The notes under the pieces were generated by a model. The model saw nothing but the letters and a program-made list of their open reading frames with translations. It searched no databases and was not told the origin of the DNA. DNA of 64,000 bases from Acidobacteriota bacterium. GTDB taxonomy: Bacteria; Acidobacteriota; UBA6911; JACQSX01. Below are positions 4,136 to 59,200 of the stretch, piece by piece; positions within the stretch are counted from its first letter, which is position 1; each line of letters opens with the position of its first letter. Location: the NCBI GenBank assembly GCA_036505615.1, contig DASXTB010000409.1:4540-68539 (forward strand). Direction: 5' to 3'. Position numbers and translations under genes: made by a program.

Positions 4136-4513
4136 CTCTAGACCGGAGAGGAAACGCAGATCATTTCGGCTGCAGAAGAACTTCGCCTTGAGCCTCATCA
4201 GGTAATAGCTGGCAAAGAAGACGCCCACAAAAGCGATCGAACTCATTCTCAGCGCCCGCAGCCGTAGCAGGGTCTTCACATCTCCCATCAGAAAATCGGA
4301 AAACTCCAGAAACAGATTCTGTCGAGATTTAGTGTGCTGCATAAGAAGTCGAACGTCCGGAGCTTCCAAAAGCCGCAAAATATGGGCCAGAGATAGTTCT
4401 ACTTGCTCAAGACTCTTTCGCTCTGGCTCGTCCCACCGCAAGGAACACACCTGCAGGTAGAAGACATAAAGCATCAGCGCCAGCGAAATTGCTGCGATGT
4501 AGTAGTAAATCAT
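4109..4513 (-). CDS. Hypothetical membrane protein
   Basis: The ORF extends to 4615, but the internal ATG at 4513-4511 gives an ATGA overlap with the stop of the upstream membrane-protein gene (4510). Product begins with a TM helix (MIYYYIAAISLALMLYVFYL). Confidence 0.4.
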   Translation of the reverse strand: MIYYYIAAISLALMLYVFYLQVCSLRWDEPERKSLEQVELSLAHILRLLEAPDVRLLMQHTKSRQNLFLEFSDFLMGDVKTLLRLRALRMSSIAFVGVFFASYYLMRLKAKFFCSRNDLRFLSGLELALFRSLQ

Positions 4514-5244
4514 CGGAGGAGCAACGATCTGAGCACCTGCTCCAACTGATCGTTGACCTTTGCAAACTGGTCCTCTGCAAAAGGCTTCAATCGACGCGTC
4601 GGAACATAATCCCAAAGCGCGTAAGCGAAGATAATCAGCGCCATGAGATAAATAAATGGGACAAAAAACCCAAAAATTTGAAATGGCGAAACGGCGAATA
4701 CATAGCGTCCAAAATTAATGCTCTGCAAAGCCACCATGACCGCAATCCCCACCAGAATTCCCTTTGCATTGCGCCCCAGATCCAGTTGGTTATTTGAATA
4801 GACTTTGCGGTACACCAACAGGCACGCCACAACCTGCAGCGGAAGAGTCAGCGCATGGTAGTTCAGGAAGGGATCCCCTCTTTTCATCGAAAATACCTGC
4901 CAAGCAATTGGCGCTGTAGTCACAGCGACGAGACTAGCCCAGCGCGGCAAGTCCTTCCAAGAACTATTGGCATAGCCAACACTTTGACGGTACAAATCCC
5001 AGAGGATCCAGAGTTGCAACAACGGGATCAAAGTGTTCGGAAGGTGAAAGGAATAGTAGTACTGAGGGGACGTGATGCCAAAAAAAAGGACTACAAGAAG
5101 ATTTCCCAGCGAGGTAGTGAGGCAGAAACTGATGTATCCGTAAAAGATTGGATACAGATGCAATATCCCGTTCCTGAAACCTCGAAAGAGAATCAAAAAC
5201 AGCAGGACAATATTGATAGCCCAAATCGCGTAAGCCTGCGTCAT
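4510..5244 (-). CDS. Polytopic integral membrane protein (about 7 TM), function unknown
   Basis: 244 aa, almost entirely hydrophobic helices. No recognisable catalytic motif. Confidence 0.5.
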   Translation of the reverse strand: MTQAYAIWAINIVLLFLILFRGFRNGILHLYPIFYGYISFCLTTSLGNLLVVLFFGITSPQYYYSFHLPNTLIPLLQLWILWDLYRQSVGYANSSWKDLPRWASLVAVTTAPIAWQVFSMKRGDPFLNYHALTLPLQVVACLLVYRKVYSNNQLDLGRNAKGILVGIAVMVALQSINFGRYVFAVSPFQIFGFFVPFIYLMALIIFAYALWDYVPTRRLKPFAEDQFAKVNDQLEQVLRSLLLR

Positions 5245-6057: not shown

Positions 6058-6088
6058 AGTATGGAACGAAGTATAGAACATGGATACG

Positions 6089-6245
6089 AGCGGGAGAGTG
6101 GGTGAGCGGGCGAGCGGCTGAGTGGGCGAGTCGGTAATCCCGTGATCCTTCAAACTCTCTATTATACGGTTCTCCAGTGACCGGCTCCCCTACTCCAGCG
6201 CTCTCCACTCCCCCACTCTCCCGCTCACCCACTCATTCCCTCTCC
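6089..6245. repeat. Inverted repeat (GRGAGTGGG-type units) between convergent genes
   Basis: 6089-6138 (gggagagtgggtgagcgggcgagcgg...) is the reverse complement of 6196-6245 (...ctctcccgctcacccactc). Likely a bidirectional terminator hairpin. The same unit family recurs inside a CDS at 58795-58915. Confidence 0.6.
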
Positions 6246-11343: not shown

Positions 11344-11349
11344 CAATTG

Positions 11350-11505
11350 CGGGTTGTGGATTTCGGATTGCGGAATTAGAGAAATGCGGGTTGTCAGTGG
11401 TCCGTGGTCCGTTGTTTCTTAAGAAACCTCGTTGTTCAACAACTACGAACCACTGACAACGGACAGACTTAAATCCGCAATCCGAAATCCACAATCCGCA
11501 ATAGC
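11350..11505. repeat. Nested palindrome between convergent genes (CGGATTG outer arms, GTCCGTT inner arms)
   Basis: Outer gcgggttgtggatttcggattgcggaatt / aatccgcaatccgaaatccacaatccgcaat. Inner gttgtcagtggtccgtggtccgttg / caactacgaaccactgacaacggac. Probable bidirectional terminator. Confidence 0.6.
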
Positions 11506-13726: not shown

Positions 13727-14050
13727 TACCCAGTTCGTAGTTGCCAGTTGCCAGTTACCAGTTCCCAGTGGTCTATCTTAGTGCCGGATCGGCAACTGAT
13801 GTCCAGTGCCCAGTGTTCTAGAGCCCAGCGTCCCGTTACCAGTGGCCAGTGGCCAGTTGCCAGTTCCTGGTTTCATCCTCTGGTTACTGGTGGACGATCC
13901 GGCAATAAGATCAACGACTAGGAACTGCCAACTAGCCACTGGCAGCCCGGCGCTGGGCTCTGGAACGCTGGGTACTGGACATCAGTGGCCAATCCGGCAC
14001 TAAGATGGGCCACTGGGAACTGGTAACTGGCAACTGGCAACTGGACACTG
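13727..14050. repeat. Inverted duplication of a ~105-bp CCAGTKG heptamer-array element in a divergent promoter region
   Basis: 13727-13831 is ~90% identical to the reverse complement of 13945-14050. The 113-bp centre is itself partly symmetrical. Confidence 0.7.
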
Positions 14051-14151
14051 GGTACTGAGGTTTTAAAGTTGAAAAAAAGATCCAGAGACGCCAAGATCGA
14101 ATCTTGAAAATTTTGAGTCGCAAATTAACGGATTCCCCAGTTGTGTAATTA

Positions 14152-16455: not shown

Positions 16456-16471
16456 TCGAACTGAAACTGAA

Positions 16472-16660
16472 GGTCGAAAGTCGAAAGTCGAAAGTCGAGG
16501 TCGAAAGTCGAGGTCGAAAGTCGGACGTCGAAAGTCGAATGCTATCGACTCGCTCACCTTTTGAATGGCAAACCTGAAGACCGGCTGACTTGCGACCTGC
16601 GACTTTCGATCTTCGACTTTCAACCTTCGACTTTCGACAGGACCTGCGACTTGCGACCTT
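16472..16660. repeat. GTCGAAA heptamer array (16472-16540) and its reverse-complement array (16589-16660)
   Basis: (ggtcgaaa)n ... (tttcgac)n arms flank a 48-nt loop, ending 15 nt before the permease start codon. Confidence 0.7.
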
Positions 16661-18566: not shown

Positions 18567-18903
18567 AAGCCAGCTATCAGCCATCAGTCATCGGTCATCG
18601 GTCATCGGTAGTCAGTCATTGGTAGTCCTCTCATCGGTCATTAGCTTCCGTGAGCAACTGGACCAGGGATCTGATTTATTTTCAAAAATTGCTTCGCAAA
18701 TTTTCAGCTGGAGGAGTTATGTAAAGCGGAGACTTGGCAAATTAGACCAGGAATTGCGTATGTTTCTCCGCTTGATCAACGGCTACGTCCGATCGATAGG
18801 AGACCGATGACTGATGACCGATGACCGATGACTGATAACCGATGACTGATGGCTGATGGCCGATGACCAATGACCGATTAACGATGACTGATGACCGACG
18901 ACG
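18567..18903. repeat. CATCGGT heptamer array (18567-18644) and inverted ACCGATG array (18806-18903) flanking a 160-bp unique core
   Basis: Direct read of tandem catcggt/catcagt units on the left and accgatg/actgatg units on the right. The core has SD-ATG-TAA at 18710-18724. Confidence 0.7.
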
Positions 18904-19900
18904 CAGAATCGGTCTGCAGGCGTTCCAGTATGGAAATGGTTCTGGACCCGCGGTTACAGACAAAAACGTAGGCGTTGTCGCGGCTCACATGCACTGCAGC
19001 TGGTTTGACGCCGACTGCAACTTGCTCCAGCTCGGTAAATGACTCCAGGTCGAAGATTGCAACTTTGCCTTCCAGACCGTTTGTCACGTACAGATACTTG
19101 CCGTCGCCGCTAATCTCCATTGCAGTCGGGCCACTTCCGGTCGAGATGTGTTTGGTTTCTTTCTCTTCGTCCAGGGAAATCCGCACTACACTGTTGCGAG
19201 GTCCAAGCGCGAACAACCAGCGCTCCTGAGGATCGACAACCAGCGGTGTGTCCCTTGCCGTAACAACATTGAACGTACGGATCACCTTTTTTAGCGTCAT
19301 ATCAACGACGGCTATCTGTTGCATACCCACCGCAACGTAAGCTTGACCTCTCTGCGTCGCTACGGCCAAGCCCGCGATTGGAGAGTTAAACTCTACTTCC
19401 TTGATGGGACGGTATGTAAAGGGGCTGAGAAAGGCGAGCTTCTGATGACGGGCCAGAAGCACCAAGACCTCACGCTGGTATTGTCCGAAAAAGGTCGGTC
19501 CCCCGCCCAGTGGGATGCTGCGGGTAAAGCGGTTTCCATAAAGATCGATCAAGGAGATTTTGCGGCCGCTCCAGTGTCCGATCAGAGCAAGCTTGTCTCC
19601 CGGCAACACGTGAATAAACAGCAGTGAACCATCCAGCCGAAGACGGCTTGTCACCCTGCCCAACCTCAAGTCGTAAAATAGTACTTGATCATCTCCTGTA
19701 GTAATAACCAACTTCCGGTTATCGGGCGTCACCCAGCTGGCAATCGGAACTGATTCCAACTTTACTGTCGTGAAAAGACGATGAGTCTGCTGCGCGTTGG
19801 CAATGGACCAAAGTGCGAAGCTGGCAAGAAAGAATGAGGCTGGACCGTTGAATTTCGGTTTTCTGCGCAAGTCTTTCCCCTGGCAATCGTCGTCAGTCAT
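18878..19900 (-). CDS. Secreted YVTN-family beta-propeller protein
   Basis: Start taken at MTDDD...FFLASFALWSIANA (signal peptide). Repeats contain YVTNGLEGKVAIFDL and YVFVCNRGSRTISILE. Confidence 0.6.
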   Translation of the reverse strand: MTDDDCQGKDLRRKPKFNGPASFFLASFALWSIANAQQTHRLFTTVKLESVPIASWVTPDNRKLVITTGDDQVLFYDLRLGRVTSRLRLDGSLLFIHVLPGDKLALIGHWSGRKISLIDLYGNRFTRSIPLGGGPTFFGQYQREVLVLLARHQKLAFLSPFTYRPIKEVEFNSPIAGLAVATQRGQAYVAVGMQQIAVVDMTLKKVIRTFNVVTARDTPLVVDPQERWLFALGPRNSVVRISLDEEKETKHISTGSGPTAMEISGDGKYLYVTNGLEGKVAIFDLESFTELEQVAVGVKPAAVHVSRDNAYVFVCNRGSRTISILERLQTDSASSVISHR

Positions 19901-19929
19901 TCGGCATTGGCCGGATAAAAGCCGATCAC

Positions 19930-20025
19930 GACCACGTTCACGAGCAGGTCCACGCCTACGCGGACGAAAATACACAATCGCTCACGATTCGACTGGTCGT
20001 AGTCGTGGACGTTGACGTGTTAGCG
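19930..20025. repeat. Dispersed ~100-bp CACGNN-hexamer palindromic element, copy 1 (copy 2 inverted at 26397-26513)
   Basis: gtccacgcctacgcggacgaaaatacacaatcgctcacgattcgactggtc here matches the reverse complement of 26440-26490 with 2-3 differences. Confidence 0.7.
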
Positions 20026-20087
20026 GGCCGGCAAATCTGGTTTTTTTACCACATTTTCCCGGCGTATCGCCCCCGCACAGGTCCTCC

Positions 20088-20377
20088 AAAACCCGAAGGG
20101 TTTACAGAGTAAAGCCGGCGGCAAAGCCCGCGCCTTTTGCGGGCGACGCCGCCGGTTGGCCATCCATCCAAGACGATCCGCCCTGAAAGCGCCTAAGAAT
20201 TTTTCGCAAATTTGAAACCAAGCCCATTTAGTTCTTCGACCCGCTATATCTGTGGCGCTCAGGCTCTGCGACGCCTTCAGCGTCAGATAGTTTATGGAAA
20301 CGGTTAACCGGCGGCGACGCCCCGCAAAAACCGCGGGCTCTGCCGCCGGCTATACTCTCTAAACCCTTCGGGTTTTA
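20088..20377. repeat. Pair of ~75-bp inverted repeats flanking a 140-bp core (MITE-like or structured element)
   Basis: 20088-20160 (aaaacccgaagggtttacagagtaaagccggcggcaaagcccgcgccttttgcgggcgacgccgccggtt) is ~90% identical to the reverse complement of 20301-20377. Each arm contains three short hairpins. Confidence 0.65.
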
Positions 20378-20416
20378 CCGGCGGCCTCTTACATCCTTAG
20401 CTGCGGTTTGCGAACG

Positions 20417-21592
20417 TCACCGATAGAAAACTACCCGATCGCCACTCTCGCACTTTCGAAATCGGTCTATCCATTCAACGCACTGCTCCGCGTTGGCCGC
20501 CTGACGCACATCTATATGATTCGTGCCGTCCAGGTTTTGGCGAATAAAAGATTGCAGGACATGCGTTTCCCACCGCTCCTCCAAAGTTAGGTCCGAGAAA
20601 TACACTCTCCCGATGTCAGCAATAAGTTTCTTTCGTTGGTCGCTTCGACCGCTGTACCGAAAATCGCCGCCAAATTTGCCGCCTCGCATGAAAAACAGTC
20701 GCACTGCGTTCTTCTTCTCTGATGGAAGCACCAGAATTAAGTCGGACGCGCGGTAATACTCGGCTTGGCGCTCCCGCACTTCGAGCTGGAAGTTGACTTC
20801 AGGTCGCCACCTTTCGATGGCGCGGGCTTCTTCCAGAAATGCCTCCAATTCGCTGCCCAGAGACTGAAAATCCAATGAGTAGAGCCGCTGATGGATGCGC
20901 TGCAATTTTTCATCCCACAATTCACAAGAAACGAAATAGCTGCGAATGCGCCTGTTCAGGTTCTTACTTTTTCCTACGTAGAAGACCCTTCCCCTCTGGT
21001 CGCTCATCCAGTAAATTCCCGGGGTCTCGGGAATTGCCGCCAGCCATTCGGCCGAGAACCCGAAGCGACTGAAATCAATCTCACTGCGGCCGTCAACCAG
21101 CGTTTGCACTCGCTTCAAACCGCAGTTGTCGTCCAAAAACTGTACCGCATCACCCAGGAGGGCAGCGATTTGGTCCGTATTGGCTGGTTCCCGGAAGGTG
21201 CTACCCAGGCGCGCGGCAACTTCGGCCAGAGTTACTCGCCGCGCTGCTTTGCTGCGATTTGGAAACGCCGCGCGCCACAGTTCCTGAAACTCCCAGGCGC
21301 GGCAGTCCGCATCAGGCAGCCAGCCGGCTAACCGGCTCAGCAGATCGAGTGCAACACGCAGATTGGGCCAGCATATGACGCAAGACTGCAGACAACGATG
21401 AAACTGGACCGGGCCGTCCGACGCGCCGGGCTGCCCGCCAGGAGCGCTGCGCCTATCAGGGTTGGAGACGAGCGAAAATGGAGAGTCATCCCAGTCCTGT
21501 GCGGAAAGACACAAGCCTTCGGGAACCACCAACCGGCATGCAGCATGGCAGACGGTTCCTCCAATCCAGAGTCGCGCCAGCAGTTCTTCCAT
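20417..21592 (-). CDS. GIY-YIG nuclease-domain protein with uncharacterised N- and C-terminal regions
   Basis: Central GIYWMSDQRGRVFYVGKSKNLNRRIRSY (GIY...YVG...R motif). Start taken at the internal MEELLARL (21592) to avoid overlapping the divergent transporter gene. The ORF could extend to 21673. Confidence 0.5.
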   Translation of the reverse strand: MEELLARLWIGGTVCHAACRLVVPEGLCLSAQDWDDSPFSLVSNPDRRSAPGGQPGASDGPVQFHRCLQSCVICWPNLRVALDLLSRLAGWLPDADCRAWEFQELWRAAFPNRSKAARRVTLAEVAARLGSTFREPANTDQIAALLGDAVQFLDDNCGLKRVQTLVDGRSEIDFSRFGFSAEWLAAIPETPGIYWMSDQRGRVFYVGKSKNLNRRIRSYFVSCELWDEKLQRIHQRLYSLDFQSLGSELEAFLEEARAIERWRPEVNFQLEVRERQAEYYRASDLILVLPSEKKNAVRLFFMRGGKFGGDFRYSGRSDQRKKLIADIGRVYFSDLTLEERWETHVLQSFIRQNLDGTNHIDVRQAANAEQCVEWIDRFRKCESGDRVVFYR

Positions 21593-21635
21593 AAATTGCC
21601 GTGTTCCAGGTATTTGTCGGCGCGTGGCCACAACG

Positions 21636-22622
21636 ATGCTAAAATTCGCGGTTTGTTTTATGAAAGAATCCACCGATTACCCTGATTTCTCGAATGAGAC
21701 AACTAATGCAGCTTCCGCGCTCCGGCGTAGGCGGCAACACTGGTTGGCTGACGGATGTTTTCTGCTTATCACATTCATCTGGGGCTTTTCCTTTGTAGTC
21801 GTCAAAAATGCTCTGCGCGAAGTGCCGATGTTCTATTTCAATGCGCTCCGCTTCGGCGTTGCTACTGTGATTCTGATTCCTTTTACATTCAGGCAATGGA
21901 GAGCCTGGAAGCCATCTATTCTTCCTGGATCGATTCTGGCAATGTTTCTTTATGTTGGGTTTGCATTCCAGACGGCGGGACTGAAGTACACCACGCCTTC
22001 TAAGTCAGCCTTCATTACTTCTTCCGCAGCCATCGCAGTCCCCATCTTTCTTTTTCTCTTCTTCAGGAAGAAGTCCGATCTTTCCGCGCTTCTAGGAGTT
22101 CTGGTCGCGTTCGCCGGTCTTTACCTTTTGAGTGTTCCCTCAAACAATTTTAATCTCAACCATGGAGATACTTTGACCGCAATATGCGCCGCGGCCTGGT
22201 CGTTTCATATCATCTTCACGGGCCGTTTTTCTCCGTTTTATCCGTTGGCCGCGCTCGCCACTTTTCAGATTGTCTTGGCCGGAATTGGTTTTTGGCTGAC
22301 GGCGCTCGGCTCGAGTCAAATCGGGCCAGTACCTAGAACCGCCGTGCCGGCAATACTTTACGGTGGCATACTGGCCACCGCTCTCTGCTTCGGGCTGCAG
22401 CTCTGGGCTCAGCGCCACACGTCGCCCACACGCGCCGGCCTGCTGCTGACAACCGAGCCGCTTTTTGCATCTGCCACCTCCTACTTCTGGACGGGAGAAC
22501 GTCTCACCGGTCGCGAGGCCATCGGAGGAGCGCTGATCCTGGTCGCCGTCATTCTGGCCGAAGTTGGATATCAATGGCGCTTCCAGCATGGACGCTTCGC
22601 CGGCCAGGCAATCGATCTATGA
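21636..22622 (+). CDS. EamA/DMT-family transporter
   Basis: About 10 TM helices with duplicated EamA-like halves. The start could be 21636 or 21660. Confidence 0.7.
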   Translation: MLKFAVCFMKESTDYPDFSNETTNAASALRRRRQHWLADGCFLLITFIWGFSFVVVKNALREVPMFYFNALRFGVATVILIPFTFRQWRAWKPSILPGSILAMFLYVGFAFQTAGLKYTTPSKSAFITSSAAIAVPIFLFLFFRKKSDLSALLGVLVAFAGLYLLSVPSNNFNLNHGDTLTAICAAAWSFHIIFTGRFSPFYPLAALATFQIVLAGIGFWLTALGSSQIGPVPRTAVPAILYGGILATALCFGLQLWAQRHTSPTRAGLLLTTEPLFASATSYFWTGERLTGREAIGGALILVAVILAEVGYQWRFQHGRFAGQAIDL

Positions 22623-26284: not shown

Positions 26285-26396
26285 AGCGTGTAGCAGAGAA
26301 ATTTGTAGCAATTAAATAGGAGGCGGATTACACAGAAACAACTACTATTTGGTGAAATCTTGTGCTCTCGGCAAAATTTGGCGCTGAACAGCCGAC

Positions 26397-26513
26397 CACG
26401 TTCACGTTCACGAGCACGTCAACGTCCACGACTACGACCAATCGAATCGTGAGCGATTGTGTATTTTTCGTCCGCGTAGGCGTGGACGTGTTCGTGAACG
26501 TGAACGTGGTCGT
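26397..26513. repeat. CACGNN-hexamer palindromic element, copy 2 (inverted relative to 19930-20025)
   Basis: cgaccacgttcacgttcacgagcacgtcaacgtccacgactacgacc ... ggcgtggacgtgttcgtgaacgtgaacgtggtcg. The core matches copy 1. Confidence 0.7.
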
Positions 26514-26635
26514 TATCGGCTTTTATTGGTTTGCTGCTTTACCGCGCTAGGTCCCTTGGTGGTGAAGCTTTTTTCAGGCGACAAAGGACACGAAGGATAC
26601 AAAGGCGCACCAAGGGTCCGCCCCGGTTGCGAGCC

Positions 26636-34002: not shown

Positions 34003-34772
34003 TGGAAATTCCTGAACGGGTTGTTGGGCTGAGCTATGGGCGGGCGAGGCGCGTTGGGGGGCGCGCTGAAAGCACCGGGAGTGTTCAAGGCCGGCTGCTC
34101 GCGCAAGCCCACCGGTTTCAGGCAAACCAGGCGATACAGCTTTCCATTTTTGTCATTCTTGTAGATCACATCCACACGGACGCTCAACAGTTTCATGGGA
34201 AATTGGGTGCGTCCGTCCCATCGGGCTTGTTCTGGAATCTCAAAGTCTTGAACCATCGCCTCCCACCGGAAATTGTCGTCCAGATCATCGTGTCTAGTTA
34301 TCGGGCCCTTGATGGTCTCATCGGAGAGAATTTCATTCATGACGTTCTCCGCGTAATTCATCGCCTGGCCGGCCAGGTCCATCTTGCGCACATTCTTCAG
34401 CGCTCCTGAAAAGAGTTGCAGAGCTACAGTGATGCCTATGCTGACGATCGCCAGCGCCACGACCACTTCCAGTAAGCTGAAACCCCTCCTGGAATGCCGA
34501 ATGCCGAGTGCGGAATGCGGAATGCTTTCTGAATGCGGAATGTCTTTTGAACGCGGAAGGCGAAATGCGGAATGCGGAATGCTCCTTGAATGCGGAATGG
34601 GGATTGCGGAATGCGGAATGTCTCCTGATTGGGGAACGTCCAACGCGGAACAGAGAGTGAAAGACGGCAGCCGATTAACAGTTTGAAATCCCCATTCCGC
34701 ACTCTGCATTCCGCATTCCGCATTCGATACCCCGCATTCCGCATTCGAAATTCCGCATTCGAAATTCCGCAT
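33999..34772 (-). CDS. GspI-like pseudopilin; 5' end undefined because the ORF runs into a GCGGAAT repeat array
   Basis: Prepilin motif SRRGFSLLEVVVALAIVSIGITVAL at ORF residues 95-120. No ATG/GTG lies near the motif; the nearest in-frame candidates are ATT (34502) or TTG. The upstream 90 codons are translated repeat. Confidence 0.5.
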   Translation of the reverse strand: MRNFECGISNAECGVSNAECGMQSAEWGFQTVNRLPSFTLCSALDVPQSGDIPHSAIPIPHSRSIPHSAFRLPRSKDIPHSESIPHSALGIRHSRRGFSLLEVVVALAIVSIGITVALQLFSGALKNVRKMDLAGQAMNYAENVMNEILSDETIKGPITRHDDLDDNFRWEAMVQDFEIPEQARWDGRTQFPMKLLSVRVDVIYKNDKNGKLYRLVCLKPVGLREQPALNTPGAFSAPPNAPRPPIAQPNNPFRNFQ

Positions 34773-34800
34773 TACCCACGCTCCTTCGGGATGGTCAACT
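34490..34800. repeat. GCGGAATGC heptamer/nonamer arrays in inverted orientation within the pseudopilin operon
   Basis: (gcggaatgc)n at 34490-34640 and (gcattccgc)n at 34690-34790. Confidence 0.7.
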
Positions 34801-35428
34801 TAGCCGATCCGGTAATCACGTCGGTTTTCACAATCACCTTCCGGCCGCGGTCGTTTTCCAATACCAACTCCGCATCATCGGCTCGGCCGTTCGGGTAAAA
34901 GCTGATGTAGACGGCCGGATCCCGACTTTCCTCTCCTTCAAACTTTACGGAACTCACTTTGATCTCGTCGCTAAGCCCAAAGTCGTGGACCTTGTCGTGA
35001 TAGGCGTCCGCCAGAAAGATGATGTTGCGGTCCCTTTGGACTGCGATCCGATAAACCCGCTGCTCCCCGACGGCCAAAGTCCGGGCGGTGCGGCACAATG
35101 TAACGAAGTCTCGCCCTTTGGCCTCCAGTCTCATGCCCGCAAGGCCCGTGCGCATCGACGGCATCACAACCGCCATGGCGACGGCTATTATCACCAACAC
35201 GATCACGACCTCGATGAGGGTGAAACCTCTTCGGGATTGCGGAATGCGGAATGCGGAATGGCTCAATTGCGGAATGCGGATTGCGGACTGCGGATTACTC
35301 GATTTCGGATTTCGGATTGCGGATTGCGAATTGCGGATAGTACGTTCCAATCTGTCAATCCGCAATCCGCAATCCGCAATCCGAAATTGGATAACCTGAT
35401 GCTCCAAAATACAGCCATCAAAGTGCAC
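34772..35428 (-). CDS. GspH-like pseudopilin; 5' end undefined (repeat array upstream)
   Basis: Prepilin motif QSRRGFTLIEVVIVLVIIAVAMAVV. No nearby ATG; a TTG at 35266 would give a 14-aa leader. Confidence 0.5.
   Translation of the reverse strand: MHFDGCILEHQVIQFRIADCGLRIDRLERTIRNSQSAIRNPKSSNPQSAIRIPQLSHSAFRIPQSRRGFTLIEVVIVLVIIAVAMAVVMPSMRTGLAGMRLEAKGRDFVTLCRTARTLAVGEQRVYRIAVQRDRNIIFLADAYHDKVHDFGLSDEIKVSSVKFEGEESRDPAVYISFYPNGRADDAELVLENDRGRKVIVKTDVITGSAKLTIPKERG
35235..35400. repeat. CGGAATG/CGGATTG arrays with an inverted CAATCCG partner
   Basis: cgggattgcggaatgcggaatgcggaatgg...gcggattgcggattgcgaattgcgg / caatccgcaatccgcaatccgcaatccg. Confidence 0.65.
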
Positions 35429-37746: not shown

Positions 37747-37917
37747 TTTTTAATTTCGGATTGCGGATTGCGGATTTCGGATTGCAGATTTCGGATTGCG
37801 GATTGGGAATTGACAGCTAAGCGAGTTGCTCACAATGCGCAAACCCGCCATCCGCGAATCCCCAATCCGCAATCCGAAATCAGCAGTCCGAAATCCGAAA
37901 TCCGCAATCCGCATTCC
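37747..37917. repeat. CGGATTG heptamer arrays in inverted orientation between gspF and gspE
   Basis: tttcggattgcggattgcggatttcggattgcagatttcggattgcggattgg ... aatccgcaatccgaaatcagcagtccgaaatccgaaatccgcaatccgc. Confidence 0.7.
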
Positions 37918-45947: not shown

Positions 45948-45960
45948 CTTAAGTTAGGTC

Positions 45961-46150
45961 GCAAGTCGCAGGTCGCAGGTCGAATCCTCAAGTCGCAGGT
46001 CGCAGGTCGCACGTCGAAATCCTCAAGTCGCAGGTCGCAAGTCGCAGGTCGCAGGTCGAAAGCGAAAACCCAGACTTTTAAAGTTCCTCTTAAAAATGAA
46101 AAAGGGGTCATGGACTCGGAACCTGCGACGTGCGACCTGCGACTTGTAAC
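45961..46150. repeat. GTCGCAG heptamer arrays in inverted orientation
   Basis: (gtcgcaggtcgcaag)n at 45961-46060; cctgcgacgtgcgacctgcgac at 46120-46145. Overlaps the last ~13 codons of trmFO. Confidence 0.65.
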
Positions 46151-47547
46151 CTTTGTTTACAGAATTCTTCCATCGCCTGGCGCGCCAGCGCAATTTGACC
46201 AGCCCGGCGCACTTCTTTTTTCCCCCGCATTTCGACAGGCGGCAGCAACCCAAAGTTTATGTTCATCGGCTGAAAGCTCGCCGAATCTGCCTGGGTGATG
46301 TAATGCAGAAGGCTCCCAATTGCGGTCTCTCGAGGAAACTCGAGCGGGTTGCCTCCTGAAGCCACTCGCATGGCATTCCATCCGGCAACCAGTCCGGTGG
46401 CCATTGATTCGACATACCCCTCCACTCCGCAGATCTGGCCCGCGAAATAGATCTCCGGCCGAAACTTCAACTGAAGCGCCCGGTTTAGCAGCCGGGGAGC
46501 GTTAATAAACGTGTTTCGATGAATCTGGCCCAGCCGGATAAATTCGGCGCGCTCCAGGCCCGGGATCAGCCGGAAGACTCGCTGCTGTTCCCCGTAGCGA
46601 AGGTGATTTTGAAAACCTACCATGTTATACGCGTCGGCCACCAGGTTTTCCTGGCGCAGTTGTACCACTGCATATGGCTGCAGGCCAGTTCGAGGGTCGC
46701 GCAGGCCAACAGGCTTCATAGGGCCAAATCGGAGTGTGTCAAGCCCGCGGCGGGCCAGCTCCTCGATTGGAAGACAGGCCTCAAAGAACATCGCCTTTTC
46801 GAATTCCTTAACAGCGACCGACTCCGCATGCAGAAGAGCGTCGTAGAAGCGCTCGTACTGATCGCGTGCCATCGGGCAATTCACATAATCGCCGTCAGCG
46901 TGCTGTTGGACTTCCGCTTGTTTACAGGCAGCGTGCTGCGTTTCAGTGGAATGACCGGTTTCCTGTGGAGACTCAGCCCGCCGCTTCTCTTCCAAAATTC
47001 GATGATCGTATCGCGAGCGCCGAAAAACCTTGTCCCAATCAATCGAGTCGGATTCCACGATGGGACTGATGGCATCGTAAAAATAGAGCGCCGCTTCACC
47101 GGTCATCTCCTTAATGAAGCGCGAAAGTCCCGGTGAGGTGAGCGGCCCGGTGGCGATGATGGCAATTTGGCCCGCGGGAATCTCGACCACTTCGGACCTT
47201 TCTACGCGGATTGAGGGATGGTTTTGCAGGGTCTGTGAAATCGTCTGGCTGAACTTTTCCCGATCCACGGCAAGAGCCGCTCCGGCCGGAACTTTGACCC
47301 GGTCGGCAATGGAGATTAGCAGAGAGCCGCACCGCCGCAGTTCCCATTTCAGCTGGTGTGGCGCGCTCCCCTCGAGGTCGGACTTGAACGAATTGCTGCA
47401 CACCAGCTCGCCCAGCCAGTCGGTTTGATGAGCCGCGGTCTTGACCGCAGGCCGCATTTCAAACAGGCAAACCTTGCCGCCCTGCTGCGCAATCTGCCAC
47501 GCAGCCTCTGACCCTGCCAGTCCACCACCGATGACCCAGATCTCCAT
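46108..47547 (-). CDS. trmFO: Methylenetetrahydrofolate--tRNA-(uracil54-C5)-methyltransferase TrmFO (Gid)
   Basis: Start at MEIWVIGGGLAGSEAAW (FAD GxGxxG). FAGQICGVEGYVESMATGLVAG. C-terminal ~13 aa are repeat-encoded. Confidence 0.85.
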   Translation of the reverse strand: MEIWVIGGGLAGSEAAWQIAQQGGKVCLFEMRPAVKTAAHQTDWLGELVCSNSFKSDLEGSAPHQLKWELRRCGSLLISIADRVKVPAGAALAVDREKFSQTISQTLQNHPSIRVERSEVVEIPAGQIAIIATGPLTSPGLSRFIKEMTGEAALYFYDAISPIVESDSIDWDKVFRRSRYDHRILEEKRRAESPQETGHSTETQHAACKQAEVQQHADGDYVNCPMARDQYERFYDALLHAESVAVKEFEKAMFFEACLPIEELARRGLDTLRFGPMKPVGLRDPRTGLQPYAVVQLRQENLVADAYNMVGFQNHLRYGEQQRVFRLIPGLERAEFIRLGQIHRNTFINAPRLLNRALQLKFRPEIYFAGQICGVEGYVESMATGLVAGWNAMRVASGGNPLEFPRETAIGSLLHYITQADSASFQPMNINFGLLPPVEMRGKKEVRRAGQIALARQAMEEFCKQRLQVAGRTSQVPSP

Positions 47548-51574: not shown

Positions 51575-52039
51575 ATGTCGCCGACTGGCAAGAGACAACG
51601 CCAGACCCTGATTCGCAGGATTATCGCTGAAGAGGAAATCTTCAGCCAGGAAGAATTGCGAAATGAACTGCTGAAGCGCTCGGTGAATGTTACGCAGGCC
51701 ACTCTTTCCCGCGACATCGCCGAGCTGGGCCTGGTAAAACAGTCCTCCACGGGAACCTACACGCTTCCTGAAAACGTGACTGAACATACAGAGGCTCACG
51801 CCATTTTGGCCCGCATGCGCCAACTGGTTCAGGAGATCGATTTCTCAGGCAACCTGGTGCTGGTCAAGACCGCGCCAGGCGACGCGCAAGCAGCGGGACT
51901 TGCCATGGACCACCTTCAATTCAAGGAAGTGGTGGGAACCATCGCCGGCGACGATACCCTGCTCGTGGTGATACGGGCAAAATACAAAGCATCGGGCTTT
52001 GCCAGAAAACTGGAGAAAATGCTGGCAGGAGAAGGCTAG
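51575..52039 (+). CDS. argR: Arginine repressor ArgR
   Basis: 154 aa. N-terminal winged helix (FSQEELRNELLKRSVNVTQATLSRDIAELGLVK). C-terminal GTIAGDDTLLVV. No SD; a TAGAAT -10-like hexamer lies 9 nt upstream, so the transcript may be leaderless. Confidence 0.85.
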   Translation: MSPTGKRQRQTLIRRIIAEEEIFSQEELRNELLKRSVNVTQATLSRDIAELGLVKQSSTGTYTLPENVTEHTEAHAILARMRQLVQEIDFSGNLVLVKTAPGDAQAAGLAMDHLQFKEVVGTIAGDDTLLVVIRAKYKASGFARKLEKMLAGEG

Positions 52040-52450
52040 GAGGCAGGAAGCAGGAGGCAGGAAGCAAACGGCAGGAAGCAGGAAGCAGGAAGCAGGAGGC
52101 AGGAGCCAGGAGGCAGGAGGCAGGAGGCAGACGGCAGAAGGCGGAGGCAGAAAGCGGAAGGCCGAAGGCGGAAAGCGGAAGGCAGTAGACAGAAAGCGGA
52201 AGGCGGAAAGTGGAATGCAGCAGGCGATGGCTTACAAGGCGTCATCTGTCATTCGTCATTTGTTACCCACAACGACAGACGACGATTTGATACGTGAACT
52301 GTCTTCTGCCTTCCGCTTTCTGCCTGCTGCTTTCTGCCTGCTGCTTTCTGCCTTCTGCTTTCTGCCTCCTGCTTTCTGCCTTCCGCCTTCCGCTTTCTGC
52401 CTACAGCCTTCCGCTTTCTGCCTACAGCCTTCCGCTTTCCGCCTTCCGCC
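52031..52450. repeat. GCAGGAA heptamer array (52031-52230) and inverted TTCCTGC array (52300-52450) between argR and argF
   Basis: ggaggcaggaagcaggaggcaggaagc... versus ...ctgccttccgctttctgcctgctgctttctgcc. Confidence 0.75.
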
Positions 52451-53416
52451 TTAAACGAACTCCCGGTGCAGCGCTTTCAGCAGCAGGGCCTTGTGCACGT
52501 GCAGGCGGTTTTCGGCCTGGTCGTAGACGATGGAGCGCGGTCCATCGATAACTGAATCAGAGACTTCTTCACCCCGGTGCGCGGGAAGGCAGTGCATGAA
52601 GAACGCCTTCTTGCCGGCGCGGGTCATCAGTTGTGGAGTCACCTTGTATTGTGCAAAGTCCCGCAACTTCCTTTCTGCATCCCTCTCCTGGCCCATACTG
52701 ACCCAGGTGTCTGTGTAAACGGCATCCGCTCCAAAAAGATGGCCCAGATCGTGGCTGAATTCCACGATGCTGCCGCTCTCCCCGGCAAATTGTGCCGCGC
52801 GCCGGCAGCAGAGTGCGTCCGCCTCATAACCGGGAGGCGAGATCAGAGTGAAGTGCATTCCCAGCAGAGCGCAAATCTGCATCAGCGAGTTACTGACGTT
52901 GTTGGGGTCTCCCACGTAAACCAGCTTGCGATGCTTCACCTCACCCCAGCGCTGCTGCAACGTCAGGACGTCGGCCAGCACCTGGCAGGGATGTTCAAAA
53001 TCGCTGAGCGCATTAATCACCGGGATGGATGAATTTCGAGCCAATTCCTCCAGCGTCGATTGGGAGAATGTTCGAGCAATCACAATGGAGCACCAGCGCT
53101 CCAGATTCCTTCCTGTGTCCTTGATCGATTCCCGTTCACCAATCTTCTGCTGCTGGCAATCCAGAAAACTGGCCGTACCTCCCATGCTGTGCATTCCAAT
53201 TTCAAAAGTGAGACGGGTGCGGAGAGAAGGCTTTTCAAACAGCAACACGGCGTGACAGCCGGAGAGCGAATTCTGATGCGTCTCGGGCGCATTCTTCACC
53301 AGACACGCCAGTTGCAGCAGGTCGTGGATGCGTTCCACGCTGAGATCGGAGATCGCAAGCAGATGTTTCGGCCAGTCCCCCGCTGGATTCGTCTTAGGCT
53401 TCTTCAAGTTCTTCAT
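52451..53416 (-). CDS. argF: Ornithine carbamoyltransferase
   Basis: FEKPSLRTRLTFE (STRTR-type carbamoyl-phosphate site), HCLPAHRGEE. Start taken at MKNLKK (the ORF extends to 53524). Confidence 0.85.
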   Translation of the reverse strand: MKNLKKPKTNPAGDWPKHLLAISDLSVERIHDLLQLACLVKNAPETHQNSLSGCHAVLLFEKPSLRTRLTFEIGMHSMGGTASFLDCQQQKIGERESIKDTGRNLERWCSIVIARTFSQSTLEELARNSSIPVINALSDFEHPCQVLADVLTLQQRWGEVKHRKLVYVGDPNNVSNSLMQICALLGMHFTLISPPGYEADALCCRRAAQFAGESGSIVEFSHDLGHLFGADAVYTDTWVSMGQERDAERKLRDFAQYKVTPQLMTRAGKKAFFMHCLPAHRGEEVSDSVIDGPRSIVYDQAENRLHVHKALLLKALHREFV

Positions 53417-56254: not shown

Positions 56255-59200
56255 TCACGGGATGGGCGCGCGAATTCCGCGAATGCGGTAGTTGCCTGTA
56301 TCGGCGAAGAGAAGATTGCCGGCAGGGTCGAAATCCAGAAACGACGGCAGCTTCAGAGCGGTGTTGGTGGCCTGAGTGTTGTCACCCGTGAAGCCGCTTA
56401 TCCCGTTGCCGGCCACCGTAGTGATGACACCTGTCTTTGCTGCCACCCTTCGAATCCTTGTCTCTTCCGAAACGAAAAGATTGCCGGCGGCGTCGAACTT
56501 AACGCCCACTGGATGGTTCAGGCCCGCAGCCGTAGCAGGCCCGTTATCACCGGAGGAACTGGCCTGGCCGTTGCCGGCCACCGTCGTGATAATGCCCGTA
56601 GCGGCGTCCACCCGGCGCACCCGATTGTTCCCACTGTCTGCGATTACTAAATTTCCGGCACTGTCAACGGCAATACCTGTCGGCGAATTCAAAGCGGCAT
56701 CGGTCGCAGGGCCGTTGTCGCCAAGACGATCGGATGGGCTTCCTCCTCCCACGGCCGTGGTAATGATGCCGCTTCTCAGATCCACCCTACGAATCCGGTT
56801 GTGGTTTGTGTCTGCGACGTAAAGCACCCCCGCGCGGTCGATGGCGATTCCTTGCGGCAAATTGAGGCTGGCGGCGGTGGCCGGTCCGTTATCCCCTGAG
56901 AAATCCGACTGACCGTTTCCCGCCACGGTTGTGATGACGCCGGCGCCGTCCACTTTTCGAATTCTGTTGTTTAGCGAGTCGGAAATGAAAAGATTTCCAC
57001 TCCCGTCGATGGCCACGCCAGTTGGAGAGCTTAATGGACTCGAGGCGGCTGGAACATTGTCTCCAAGAAAACCGGCAATTCCGGTTCCGGCGACAGTGGT
57101 GATAATCCCGGTGCTTGCGGTAACTTTTCGGATCCGTTGGTTTCCGAAATCTGCAATAAAAAAGTTTCCCGCAGCATCCACCGCGATTCCTTGCGGCGAA
57201 AGCAAATTGGCTGCCGTTGCCGGTCCGCCATCCCCCAGGAAACTTTGTTGGCCGTTGCCTGCCACTGTGGTAATCGTTCCCGCCGAGACCCTTCGAATCC
57301 GGCTATTTCCCTGATCCACGATCAAAAGATTGCCGGCGCCATCTGTCGCCACTCCGTAGGGTGATGACAAGGCAGCCTGCGTCGCAGGGCCGCCGTCTCC
57401 AGAGAAACCCTGCACCCCAGTTCCAGCTACAGTGGTGATGATTCGCGTGGAGGCGTCGACCCGCCGAACACGGTGGTTGGCTGTGTCGCCAATGAAAAGG
57501 TTACCAGCGACGTCCACGGTAATACCGGCGGGAGAATTCAGCATCGCGCTGGTTGCACTCTGCAAGTCGCCGGAAAAGCCGGCCTGCCCGTTTCCCGCGA
57601 CCGTGGTAATCACTTTCGAAGCGGCATCGATTCTTCGAATCCGTTGATTGACCGTGTCGGCAACGAAGACATTACCGGAAGCATCCAGCGCAATTCCTTG
57701 GGGGGATCTGAGGGCCGCGGCCGTGGCCGGCCCGTTGTCGCCGCCAAAGTCTGGATCCGTTCCTGCAATCGTAGTGATGATTCCGGTCTTTGCATCGACT
57801 TTGCGAATACGGTGATTCGAAGTGTCGGCGATAAGCAAATTGCCTGCTCCATCGATCGCCACTGCGCGTGGGGCATTCAACGTTGCCTGAGTGGCCGGCC
57901 CCCCATCCCCGGCGAAGGGCCCCAGCCCGCGTCCCGCAACGGTTGTGATAGTTCCAGTCGCCGCGACGATTTTTCGGACCCGGCTGTTTGCTGTGTCCGC
58001 GACGTATAGATTCCCCGCACTATCGATGGCGATTCCTCGTGGGAAAGCCAGCGAAGCGGCGATAGCCGGCCCGCCGTCGCCGGAAAAGCCGATCTGGCCG
58101 TTGCCCGCCACGGCAGTAATAATTCCGGTCGCCGCGTTGATCTTTCGGATGCGATTATTATTTGCGTCTGTAAAGAAAATATTTCCCGCAGGGTCGACGG
58201 CCATTTGCTGCGGGCTGAAAAGAGTAGCTTCAGTGGCCGGACCTCCGTCGCCCGTAAAAGTCGTCCCTCCGGCGACCGTGGTGATCTGTCCGGGAAGCAA
58301 ATCACTTAGAGGAATCGGATCGACGAGCAAGGGTTTCTGCGCCACGCCGCCGCGGTTCTGCACTGTCAGAGTCAGGCGGCCGCTGGGAAGCGGAGGCGCG
58401 ATAACAGTCAGCGTCTGCGTGTCCAAGACCTGCGGGTTTGCCACGACCCCTCCCACGATCACCACTGTCTCAGGCGCAAAATTCCTTCCGCTGATTGTGA
58501 CCAGCGCGCCGCCTTTGTTGCTGACTCGGCCGGGATTGATGCTGGAGATCGACGGCTCGCCGTAGGTGATTTCGCCGTTGGAGCGGCTGCTGTCGGCCAC
58601 CAGAACCTTTCCGCTGCGCGTGATGGCGATTCCTCTGGGAGTGGCGAACGTATTGGCTTGAGCGGCGGCGGCGATATCTCCGTTTCGCAGCAGGGCAGTT
58701 ATCTGACCTGAATTTGCCTCCGTCACATAGATGTTACCGAAAGGATCTACCGCTACGCCGGTGGGGGATTTGAATTTCAACGGGGAGACTGCGAAAGGGC
58801 GAGTGAGGGAGGAGGAGAGCGGGGGAGTGGGAGAGGGGGGGAGTGAGAGAGTGTGGGAACGGGGGAGTGGGCGAGTGGGAGAGTGGGTGAGCGGGAGAGT
58901 GGGAGATGTCGGAAATGTAACTCGCCCGACATTCCTCTTGGCTGCAATGGCGCCGATGGTTTCCACTGTGCCGTCTTCTTTAACCCGGCGCAGCAGGCCG
59001 TTTCCGGTGTCGGCGACGATGACACTGACCGGCGGCGGAGGATCTCCCGTTGCTTCGCGCGCCAGTTGCTGGCCGAGCGACTCGGTCTCAACTGCGATCC
59101 CGGCAGGGAAGTTGAAGCTGGCAGCGGAGCCGACTCCATCCGCTGCGCCGGCCACACCCGCTCTTCCAGCAACGGTCTCCACCGTCTTTGCCTTGCTCGG

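Follow-up and report, generated by a model that had tools for sequence, protein, structure and literature searches.

Classical IS200/IS605 insertion sequences have dissimilar ends that are not inverted repeats of one another, with one small subterminal hairpin at each end on the same strand, and REPINs are present as tens to hundreds of doublets per genome. REPINs were proposed to derive from the flanks of an IS200-like ancestor (Bertels & Rainey 2011, PMC3116915). Tyrosine-transposase genes flanked by long inverted repeats, some of them self-complementary and present as dimers, were reported by Di Nocera et al. 2013 (PMC3733652); the TIR families described there are moderately abundant, occur as dimers and include an Acidobacteria-specific group. 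Most TIRYTs belong to subclass 2.1, with proteins of ~238 aa that carry a C-terminal HTH (Quentin 2018, PMC6006769). The same study defined TnpA-Y1 subclass 1.2, from Cyanobacteria and Bacteroidetes hosts, by the motifs Y---Q--HH, WQ and DH[IV]H and a length of ~148 aa, and described it as low-copy, without IS200-type ends and without associated REPs (PMC6006769).

Here we analyzed a long intergenic inverted repeat in a 64-kb window, by which we mean the whole stretch of acidobacterial DNA that was studied (64,000 nucleotides). We conclude, with a probability of about 0.8, that the feature is a non-autonomous, decayed internal-deletion derivative of an IS200-like element from soil Acidobacteriota, with a REPtron/TIRtron-like architecture. 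To our knowledge, this soil Acidobacteriota element family has not been described in detail.

Architecture of the inverted repeat and its hairpins

A repeat search of the window paired positions 20088-20143 with 20321-20376 (56 nt, 91% complementary) and positions 20141-20157 with 20306-20322 (17 nt, 94%), the shorter pairing being offset from the longer one by a 1-nt indel. This matches the arms at 20088-20160 and 20301-20377, ~90% complementary, that had been described in an earlier, sequence-only reading of the locus. Folding, which that reading had proposed as a check, revealed a region far more stable than shuffled sequence, with z values of -12.6 and -14.7 for RNA and -13.3 for DNA. The arm motifs do not occur a second time in the 64-kb window, for which shuffles predict 0.04-0.14 matches. 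The features of the locus, in window coordinates, are as follows.

18878-19975, minus strand: ORF for a YncE/lactonase-type beta-propeller, outside the element; the true ATG start is likely near 19898
19915-20019, no strand assigned: hexamer-array palindrome, the insertion target, outside the element (repeat search, junctions); left (CACGNN)n array 19915-19960, 37-nt spacer 19961-19997, right array 19998-20019
20020-20087, plus strand: left-end segment (TTAGCGGGCCGGCAAATCTGGTTTTTTTACCAC...CACAGGTCCTCC), outside the inverted units and kept in all related copies (alignments)
20088-20199, plus strand: left unit (covariance model R1, 113.7 bits, E = 9e-27; covariation; DNA fold)
20089-20103: hairpin 1 of the left unit, AAACCC-GAA-GGGTTT
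20114-20156: hairpin 2 of the left unit, a nested GC-rich palindrome after GTAAAG
20180-20192: hairpin 3 of the left unit, with one C-C mismatch in the window
20200-20234, plus strand: remnant of the region upstream of the lost tnpA (AATTTTTCGCAAATTTGAAACCAAGCCCATTTAGTTC; BLAST breakpoint)
20235-20263, plus strand: remnant of the tnpA 3' end, in which 20235-20258 (TTCGACCCGCTATATCTGTGGCGC) reads FDPLYLWR
20264-20376, minus strand: right unit, an inverted copy of the left unit (R1, 110.8 bits, E = 5e-26); in plus-strand coordinates, hairpin 1 at 20361-20375, hairpin 2 at 20307-20350 and hairpin 3 at 20270-20284
20377-20410, plus strand: right-side segment (ACCGGCGGCCTCTTACATCCTTAGCTGCGGTTT), in which homology to all other copies stops
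20417-21673, minus strand: ORF with a GIY-YIG domain (Pfam E = 5e-6), outside the element
26383-26530, no strand assigned: uninterrupted hexamer-array palindrome, a paralogous 'empty site' with two inverted arrays around a 37-nt spacer

The inner stem of hairpin 2, GCCCGC/GCGGGC, is nested inside an outer stem, CCGGCGGC/GCCGCCGG, and hairpin 3, which has the loop (C)TGAA(A/G)G, lies just inward of each arm. Because hairpin 2 is nested and a third hairpin is found inside each arm, the repeated unit comprises ~112 nt and not the 75 bp originally assigned to the arm, and what had been taken for a unique segment of 140 bp is a middle of only ~64 nt (20200-20263). The three small hairpins that had been noted in each arm do exist, but two of them are parts of a single long hairpin, one inside the other. 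The inverted repeats had also been viewed as the termini of the element. Conserved sequence, however, extends beyond them by 68 nt on the left (20020-20087) and 33 nt on the right (20377-20410), so that conservation runs from ~20020 to 20410 in the window; hence the inverted units are internal, not terminal. On the left, BLAST matches begin at window position 20005 in locus L046, 20010 in L062 and 20033 in L048.

The placement of the repeat between the GIY-YIG and beta-propeller genes was correct in the earlier description, both ORFs (20417-21673 and 18878-19975) being on the minus strand. The Pfam match of the GIY-YIG ORF covers only residues 219-250 of 418, the start of the ORF is uncertain, and an exact-protein look-up of its product returned no entry in the collection searched.

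We aligned 16 units for the covariation analysis, including those that surround TnpA homologues of 55-57% identity (L049, L051). The resulting consensus contains three hairpins with 27 pairs, and pair counting showed 97.6% of cells to be paired. Compensatory double changes are found in 10 of these pairs, compared to 3.8 +/- 1.1 in shuffles (0/500 reach 10) and 0-3 in slid controls. The covariance model built from this alignment, R1, finds only two units in the window, at 111-114 bits. It also detects four units around the homologue P0093 (L053), which have a GTAG foot before hairpin 2 and stems of different composition, as well as one unit in a Terriglobia MAG (L009) and a second one at the end of L020, which belongs to an Acidobacteriota MAG. 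Single units fold into three hairpins with DNA parameters. The foot of hairpin 2 is GTAAAG in the left unit of the window and GTATAG or GTAG in relatives, and the inner stem differs between L020 and the window with its pairing kept; across distant homologues no feature is better conserved than hairpin 2 with its (G/A)TAG foot. The hairpins are conserved through compensatory changes, and the covariation shows hairpin formation to be under selection. The covariation fits single-stranded DNA hairpins equally well as RNA.

Full-length relatives and the missing transposase gene

In the alignment of L046 with the window, both inverted units are present and are separated by an extra 444 bp. After correction of a single-base frameshift in a C run, this insert encodes a Y1 HUH protein of the IS200 type (Pfam Y1_Tnp PF01797, E = 5e-22; NCBIfam transpos_IS200 NF033573, 56 bits with a cutoff of 55). 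The closest relative of this protein, at 95% identity, is P0001, the product of an intact 150-aa tnpA that is flanked by two units on L048; to either side of tnpA, the identity between L048 and the window is 87%. These full-length relatives, L046 and L048, come from soil metagenomes. The L046 frameshift, a +1 change in a run of five C in the tnpA at 248-701, is either an assembly error or the mark of a pseudogene.

The BLAST breakpoint between window positions 20234 and 20235 corresponds to 230/675 in L046 and 2983/3439 in L048. The ribosome-binding site and ATG that come next in L046 and L048 are missing from the window, and tblastn found no tnpA in the 64 kb. The octapeptide encoded by 20235-20258 represents the last eight codons of tnpA; the C-terminus of the family is (F/Y)D(E/T)RYLW(S/D) and P0001 ends in ...GVSFDTRYLWS. 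As tnpA is absent and its C-terminal codons are kept, the window element is an internal-deletion derivative. The lost sequence, ~445-455 bp between TTTAGTTC and TTCGACC, contained the ribosome-binding site and nearly all of tnpA, and its loss brought the two units to within 64 nt of each other, thereby creating the 290-bp inverted repeat. The same deletion junction, TTTAGTTC/TTCGACC, is common to the window, L038, L039, L040 and L062. The parent element, ~0.8-0.9 kb in length, consists of the left-end segment, a 112-nt unit, the 150-aa Y1 HUH tnpA, the inverted unit and the right-end segment. No sampled copy combines an intact tnpA with two well-preserved ends: L046 is without the right portion, and in L048 the right-end hairpin is degenerate and the right portion diverged.

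Protein homology searches identified 756 relatives at E <= 1e-10, nearly all of which are 150 aa in length and many of which are from Acidobacteriota MAGs; their labels are a mixture of 'IS200/IS605 family transposase' and 'RayT'. An exact-protein look-up of P0002 gave no match. The best PDB matches of the TnpA are ISDra2, a Sulfolobus homologue and IS608 TnpA, and the PDB search gave no match to E. coli TnpA-REP (4ER8) at E <= 1. The family consensus, NHVHLL ... WQDGYGAFSV ... YIARQKEHH, has conserved H55, H57 and Y115, and the tyrosine motif is YI(A/R)RQKEHH and not the Y---NP of the RAYT class. By its sequence, the transposase is of the IS200 class.

A TnpA of this type would recognise and bind hairpins in single-stranded DNA and make its cuts at short, specific sequences; a REP-like candidate for its binding site is the central hairpin, which carries the (G/A)TAG foot. 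Transposase-less copies would then be moved by TnpA in trans, by the 'peel and paste' mechanism that IS200/IS605 elements use on single strands. The copy in the window might, incidentally, serve as a cruciform or hairpin between its two flanking genes.

Insertion sites, dispersal and state of the window copy

Wherever we found this IS200-like element, it is inserted in or beside a (CGTGNN)n array. In L038, L039, L040 and L062 the element interrupts the CGTGNN hexamer array, with the left junction GGACGTG / (G)TTACC.GACCGTGAAATCTGG and the right junction GGTTGTGGCCTTACGGCCACTGTAGG / CTCGTGAACGTGG, in which CTGTAGG is followed by CTCGTG. Rejoining the flanks of these four copies, and those of a mini element on L038, gives a continuous hexamer array with no duplicated bases. 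The insertion site, GACGTG^YTCGTG, coincides with one and the same boundary between hexamers in four or five independent copies, and no target-site duplication was found at the junctions of L038, L039, L040, L062 and the mini element or in the window.

The L038 mini element (~1241-1401) is 160 bp long and shares both ends with the main element, GTTACCCGACCGTGAAATTTGG on the left and GGTTGTGGCCTTACGGCCACTGTAGG on the right. It is located in the opposite orientation in the other hexamer array, at GGACGTG^CTCGTG, and carries as cargo an unrelated hairpin with a 16-bp stem and no three-hairpin units. Since the ends are found here without the units, the units may not be needed in cis for movement.

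The left end of the element is exact to within a few nucleotides; the right end is ambiguous and contains an apparent fragment of a hexamer-palindrome terminus. Comparison of the outer ends with the natural flanks of the hexamer palindrome revealed no significant similarity except TGATCGGCTTTT. The hairpin at the right end, GTGGCC-TTAC-GGCCAC, is unlike the weak one at the left end, CCAGA...TCTGG, and the units give like hairpins on either strand.

The right array of the palindrome at 19915-20019 is cut exactly where the element begins. In the intact palindrome at 26383-26530, which served to define the junctions, GTTGACGTG is followed by CTCGTGAACGTGAACGTGG, whereas at the element GTTGACGTG is followed by TTAGCGGG. 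We considered L040 and L044 as filled alleles of this 26.3-kb locus and rejected the assignment, as tblastx found no coding homology beyond the ~45-nt repeat flank; thus, 26383-26530 is a paralogous and not an allelic empty site. The 37-nt spacer is conserved, and its orientation relative to the flanks is opposite at 19915-20019 and 26383-26530, and also in L040 and L044, which suggests that the spacer has been inverted by recombination between the inverted hexamer arrays.

The intergenic regions of the window contain paired inverted tandem arrays of 7-8-nt units, with up to ~25 copies and a spacer of 40-170 nt. Such arrays are found at 16469-16659, 34491-34773, 35234-35387, 37753-37917, 45958-46152 and 52030-52452, and further ones at 13730-14051, 11346-11502, 18571-18902, 6088-6235 and 58797-58906. 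The unit is specific to the locus (GAAAGTC, GGAATGC, ATTGCGG, GTCGCAG, AGGCAGG, GACCGAT and others), and several arrays directly abut the starts or stops of genes. The (CGTGNN)n palindromes at 19915-20019 and 26383-26530 are a hexamer version of this architecture. We know of no described family with paired inverted tandem arrays, and a literature search for the architecture found none.

On the right, homology between the window and every other copy stops at 20394-20410. The window is without a right portion of ~70 nt, comprising the hairpin GTGGCC-TTAC-GGCCAC and the terminal CTGTAGG, that is kept in L038, L039, L040 and L062. The remainder of the hexamer array to the right of the element is absent as well, and the left-end segment is more diverged in the window than in other copies. 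The derived deletion junction is common to the window and to copies in which the right portion survives, and it is therefore simplest to assume that the window lost its right end later. With this portion missing, the window copy is probably immobile, a fossil.

A pattern scan of species representatives, with one genome per species and apparently without the genome of the window itself, returned 31 loci, 30 of which are chance matches. The only real relative among them, L020, has a single ~120-nt copy that matches both arms. When metagenomes were scanned with a pattern across hairpin 2, six real loci and five chance ones were obtained. In viral contigs, the matches of a loose hairpin pattern were all chance hits in coding sequence, a second pattern had no match, and a search for pseudo-ORFs running through the doublet returned only 4 called 'proteins'. 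Very large collections yielded only ~8 related loci, and the window has one doublet per 64 kb; with so few loci, amplification appears to have been modest. The sequence-only reading had held that a single copy with no covariation in relatives would speak against it, and both relatives and covariation were found.

Homology among the transposase-less contigs is confined to the element, and the genes next to the copies differ (GH77/amylase, ATP-grasp, permease, PD40; L062 has GH77 and alpha-amylase). The apparent mobility of the family rests on this comparison of copies, the 'empty site' being a paralogous copy and not an allele, and by that comparison the transposase-less copies have been dispersed to unrelated loci. 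L048, L062 and L001 are all from JGI sample 3300036862, and L001 holds the amino-acid permease gene of the window. Four contigs (L039, L040, L044, L046) end inside the element, as is typical of repeats in assemblies. L039, L040 and L064 form a subfamily, marked by an extra 60 nt inserted into hairpin 3 of their left unit.

Solo units exist in L020 and L009, and units also flank TnpA homologues of 49-57% identity (L049, L051, L053). One of these homologues, P0093 (49% identical), is found at one fixed locus, N6/N4 methyltransferase ... infC (IF3), in >20 metagenome contigs (L053-L061). It is surrounded by four GTAG-footed three-hairpin units (L053 956-2637), which include a gene-less convergent doublet at 2332-2637. 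The P0093 locus apparently represents REPtron-like, domesticated behaviour within the same protein family.

Beside the solo unit of L020 there is a tandem duplication of ~530 bp (4214-4992; 86-90% identical), which starts with the palindrome TAGCCACGTTGTGGCTA. The second unit of L020 (5589-5628) is cut off by the contig end.

Alternative explanations and comparison with known systems

One alternative overlaps the main reading. In a strict REPIN, a RAYT-type gene, domesticated and present once, would have the units as its REP-like sequences; what replicates would be the inverted doublet itself, which that gene would have spread across the genome. The 5' (G/A)TAG foot of hairpin 2 resembles that of GTAG-type REPs, the solo units of L020 and L009 would fit, and P0093 stays at one fixed locus in >20 contigs with four units around it, among them a transposase-less doublet. 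We nonetheless consider a strict REPIN unlikely, since the protein is of the IS200 class (YI(A/R)RQKEHH, not Y---NP), with PDB matches only to ISDra2/IS608-type TnpA and none to 4ER8. In addition, copy number appears low (one doublet per 64 kb), the doublets retain a coding remnant of tnpA and shared sequence outside the units, and tnpA-bearing copies are found in different contexts (L046, L048). The L038 mini element, with the same ends, a different cargo and the same GGACGTG^CTCGTG site, raises another alternative, in which the mobile unit consists of the outer ends only (GTTACC...GTGAAATCTGG on the left, GGCCACTGTAGG on the right), is moved by another recombinase, e.g. of the IS110/IS1111 type, and carries the unit-tnpA-unit block as cargo. 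IS110/IS1111 elements typically insert precisely into palindromic repeats without duplication, as was observed here. IS200/IS605 elements, however, are just as well known for inserting without duplication next to a specific short sequence. No further recombinase gene is present within any copy, and in both copies with tnpA the spacing between the left-end segment and the left unit is constant. These data render a second recombinase improbable.

The sequence-only reading had also raised a structured non-coding RNA. As a structured RNA, or a cis-regulatory or terminator element for the flanking genes, the region would account for its very stable folding, for hairpins conserved with compensatory changes and for a position between two co-directional genes. 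We regard this as very improbable: the Rfam scan of the whole window yielded nothing at the gathering threshold, and even at E <= 10 only trivial, sub-threshold hairpin look-alikes (E 0.2-5) were obtained; a promoter and terminator scan of the region detected no site; the neighbouring genes differ in every copy; the units are present in both orientations; and a dead gene remnant lies in the middle. Single-stranded DNA hairpins explain the covariation equally well, and the RNA idea is not supported. That the repeat is part of the GIY-YIG gene, e.g. as a homing-endonuclease cassette or intron-like element, is hardly credible, adjacency being all that points to it: the stop codon of the gene lies 7 nt past the last conserved base of the element, and tblastn found no GIY-YIG homologue at any other element-bearing locus. 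A link of the element to either neighbour was rejected, as homologues of neither the GIY-YIG nor the propeller gene are found beside any other copy (tblastn). The GIY-YIG neighbour is coincidental.

The decayed IS200-like element that we favour has consequences for annotation, in which the feature should be labelled as such and not as an RNA gene or as part of the GIY-YIG gene. The family provides a concrete case of REPIN-like inverted doublets arising from an IS200-type element via loss of the transposase gene; such an origin of REPINs has been proposed before but rarely seen with a coding remnant still readable. In Acidobacteriota, repeats may be associated with a TnpA-Y1 subclass so far regarded as having none, and the preference for hexamer palindromes connects the element to the unusual inverted tandem arrays in the intergenic regions of this genome. 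More tentatively, and with our own view leaning against it, the 112-nt units could be REP-like repeats of a class not recognised before and linked to an IS200-class (subclass 1.2-like) transposase, the family then being a living intermediate between IS200 and REPtron/REPIN that makes gene-less doublets by internal deletion and specifically targets tandem hexamer arrays.

The element can be compared with several known systems. The term MITE-like, used in the sequence-only reading, is appropriate in so far as the feature is a short non-coding derivative of an autonomous, transposase-bearing element, with related copies at several loci in unrelated contexts. The details of a classical DDE-type MITE do not apply: the units are not termini, the junctions show no target-site duplication, the parent has a Y1 HUH and not a DDE transposase, and the right end has been lost in the window. 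With TnpA-Y1 subclass 1.2, as published, the protein shares the Y---Q--HH motif (YIARQKEHH here, YIKNQKEHH as published), the WQ, a length of ~148-150 aa and an apparently low copy number, but it differs in its HUH motif (NH[VL]H as opposed to DH[IV]H), its Acidobacteriota hosts and its associated repeats. The supplementary files of Quentin 2018 contain no Acidobacteria entries.

Like a TIRtron, the parent element has a tyrosine-transposase gene between long inverted repeats (L046, L048, L049), with gene-less dimers elsewhere (window, L038-L040, L062). In contrast to most TIRYTs, the protein has 150 aa and no HTH tail. The resemblance to REPtrons and REPINs (RAYT/TnpA-REP: Nunvar 2010; Bertels & Rainey 2011; Ton-Hoang 2012) includes a Y1 HUH gene bracketed by inverted palindromic units and a (G/A)TAG foot on the central hairpin (GTATAG/GTAAAG in this subfamily, GTAG in L051 and L053). 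It extends to gene-less inverted doublets that form one long hairpin and to solo units and clusters around some homologues. The differences are that the protein is of the IS200 class (Y...Q) and not the RAYT class (Y...NP), that the units are 112 nt with three hairpins as opposed to 20-40 nt for REPs, and that the copy number appears low, with a doublet that visibly stems from gene deletion and has extra end segments. With IS200/IS605 elements and their transposase-less derivatives (PATEs/MITEs), finally, the family has in common a Y1 TnpA most like ISDra2/IS608 TnpA, a size of ~0.8-0.9 kb, insertion at a specific short sequence with no target duplication, and non-coding deletion derivatives; it differs from them in the large inverted multi-hairpin units that lie inside its ends.
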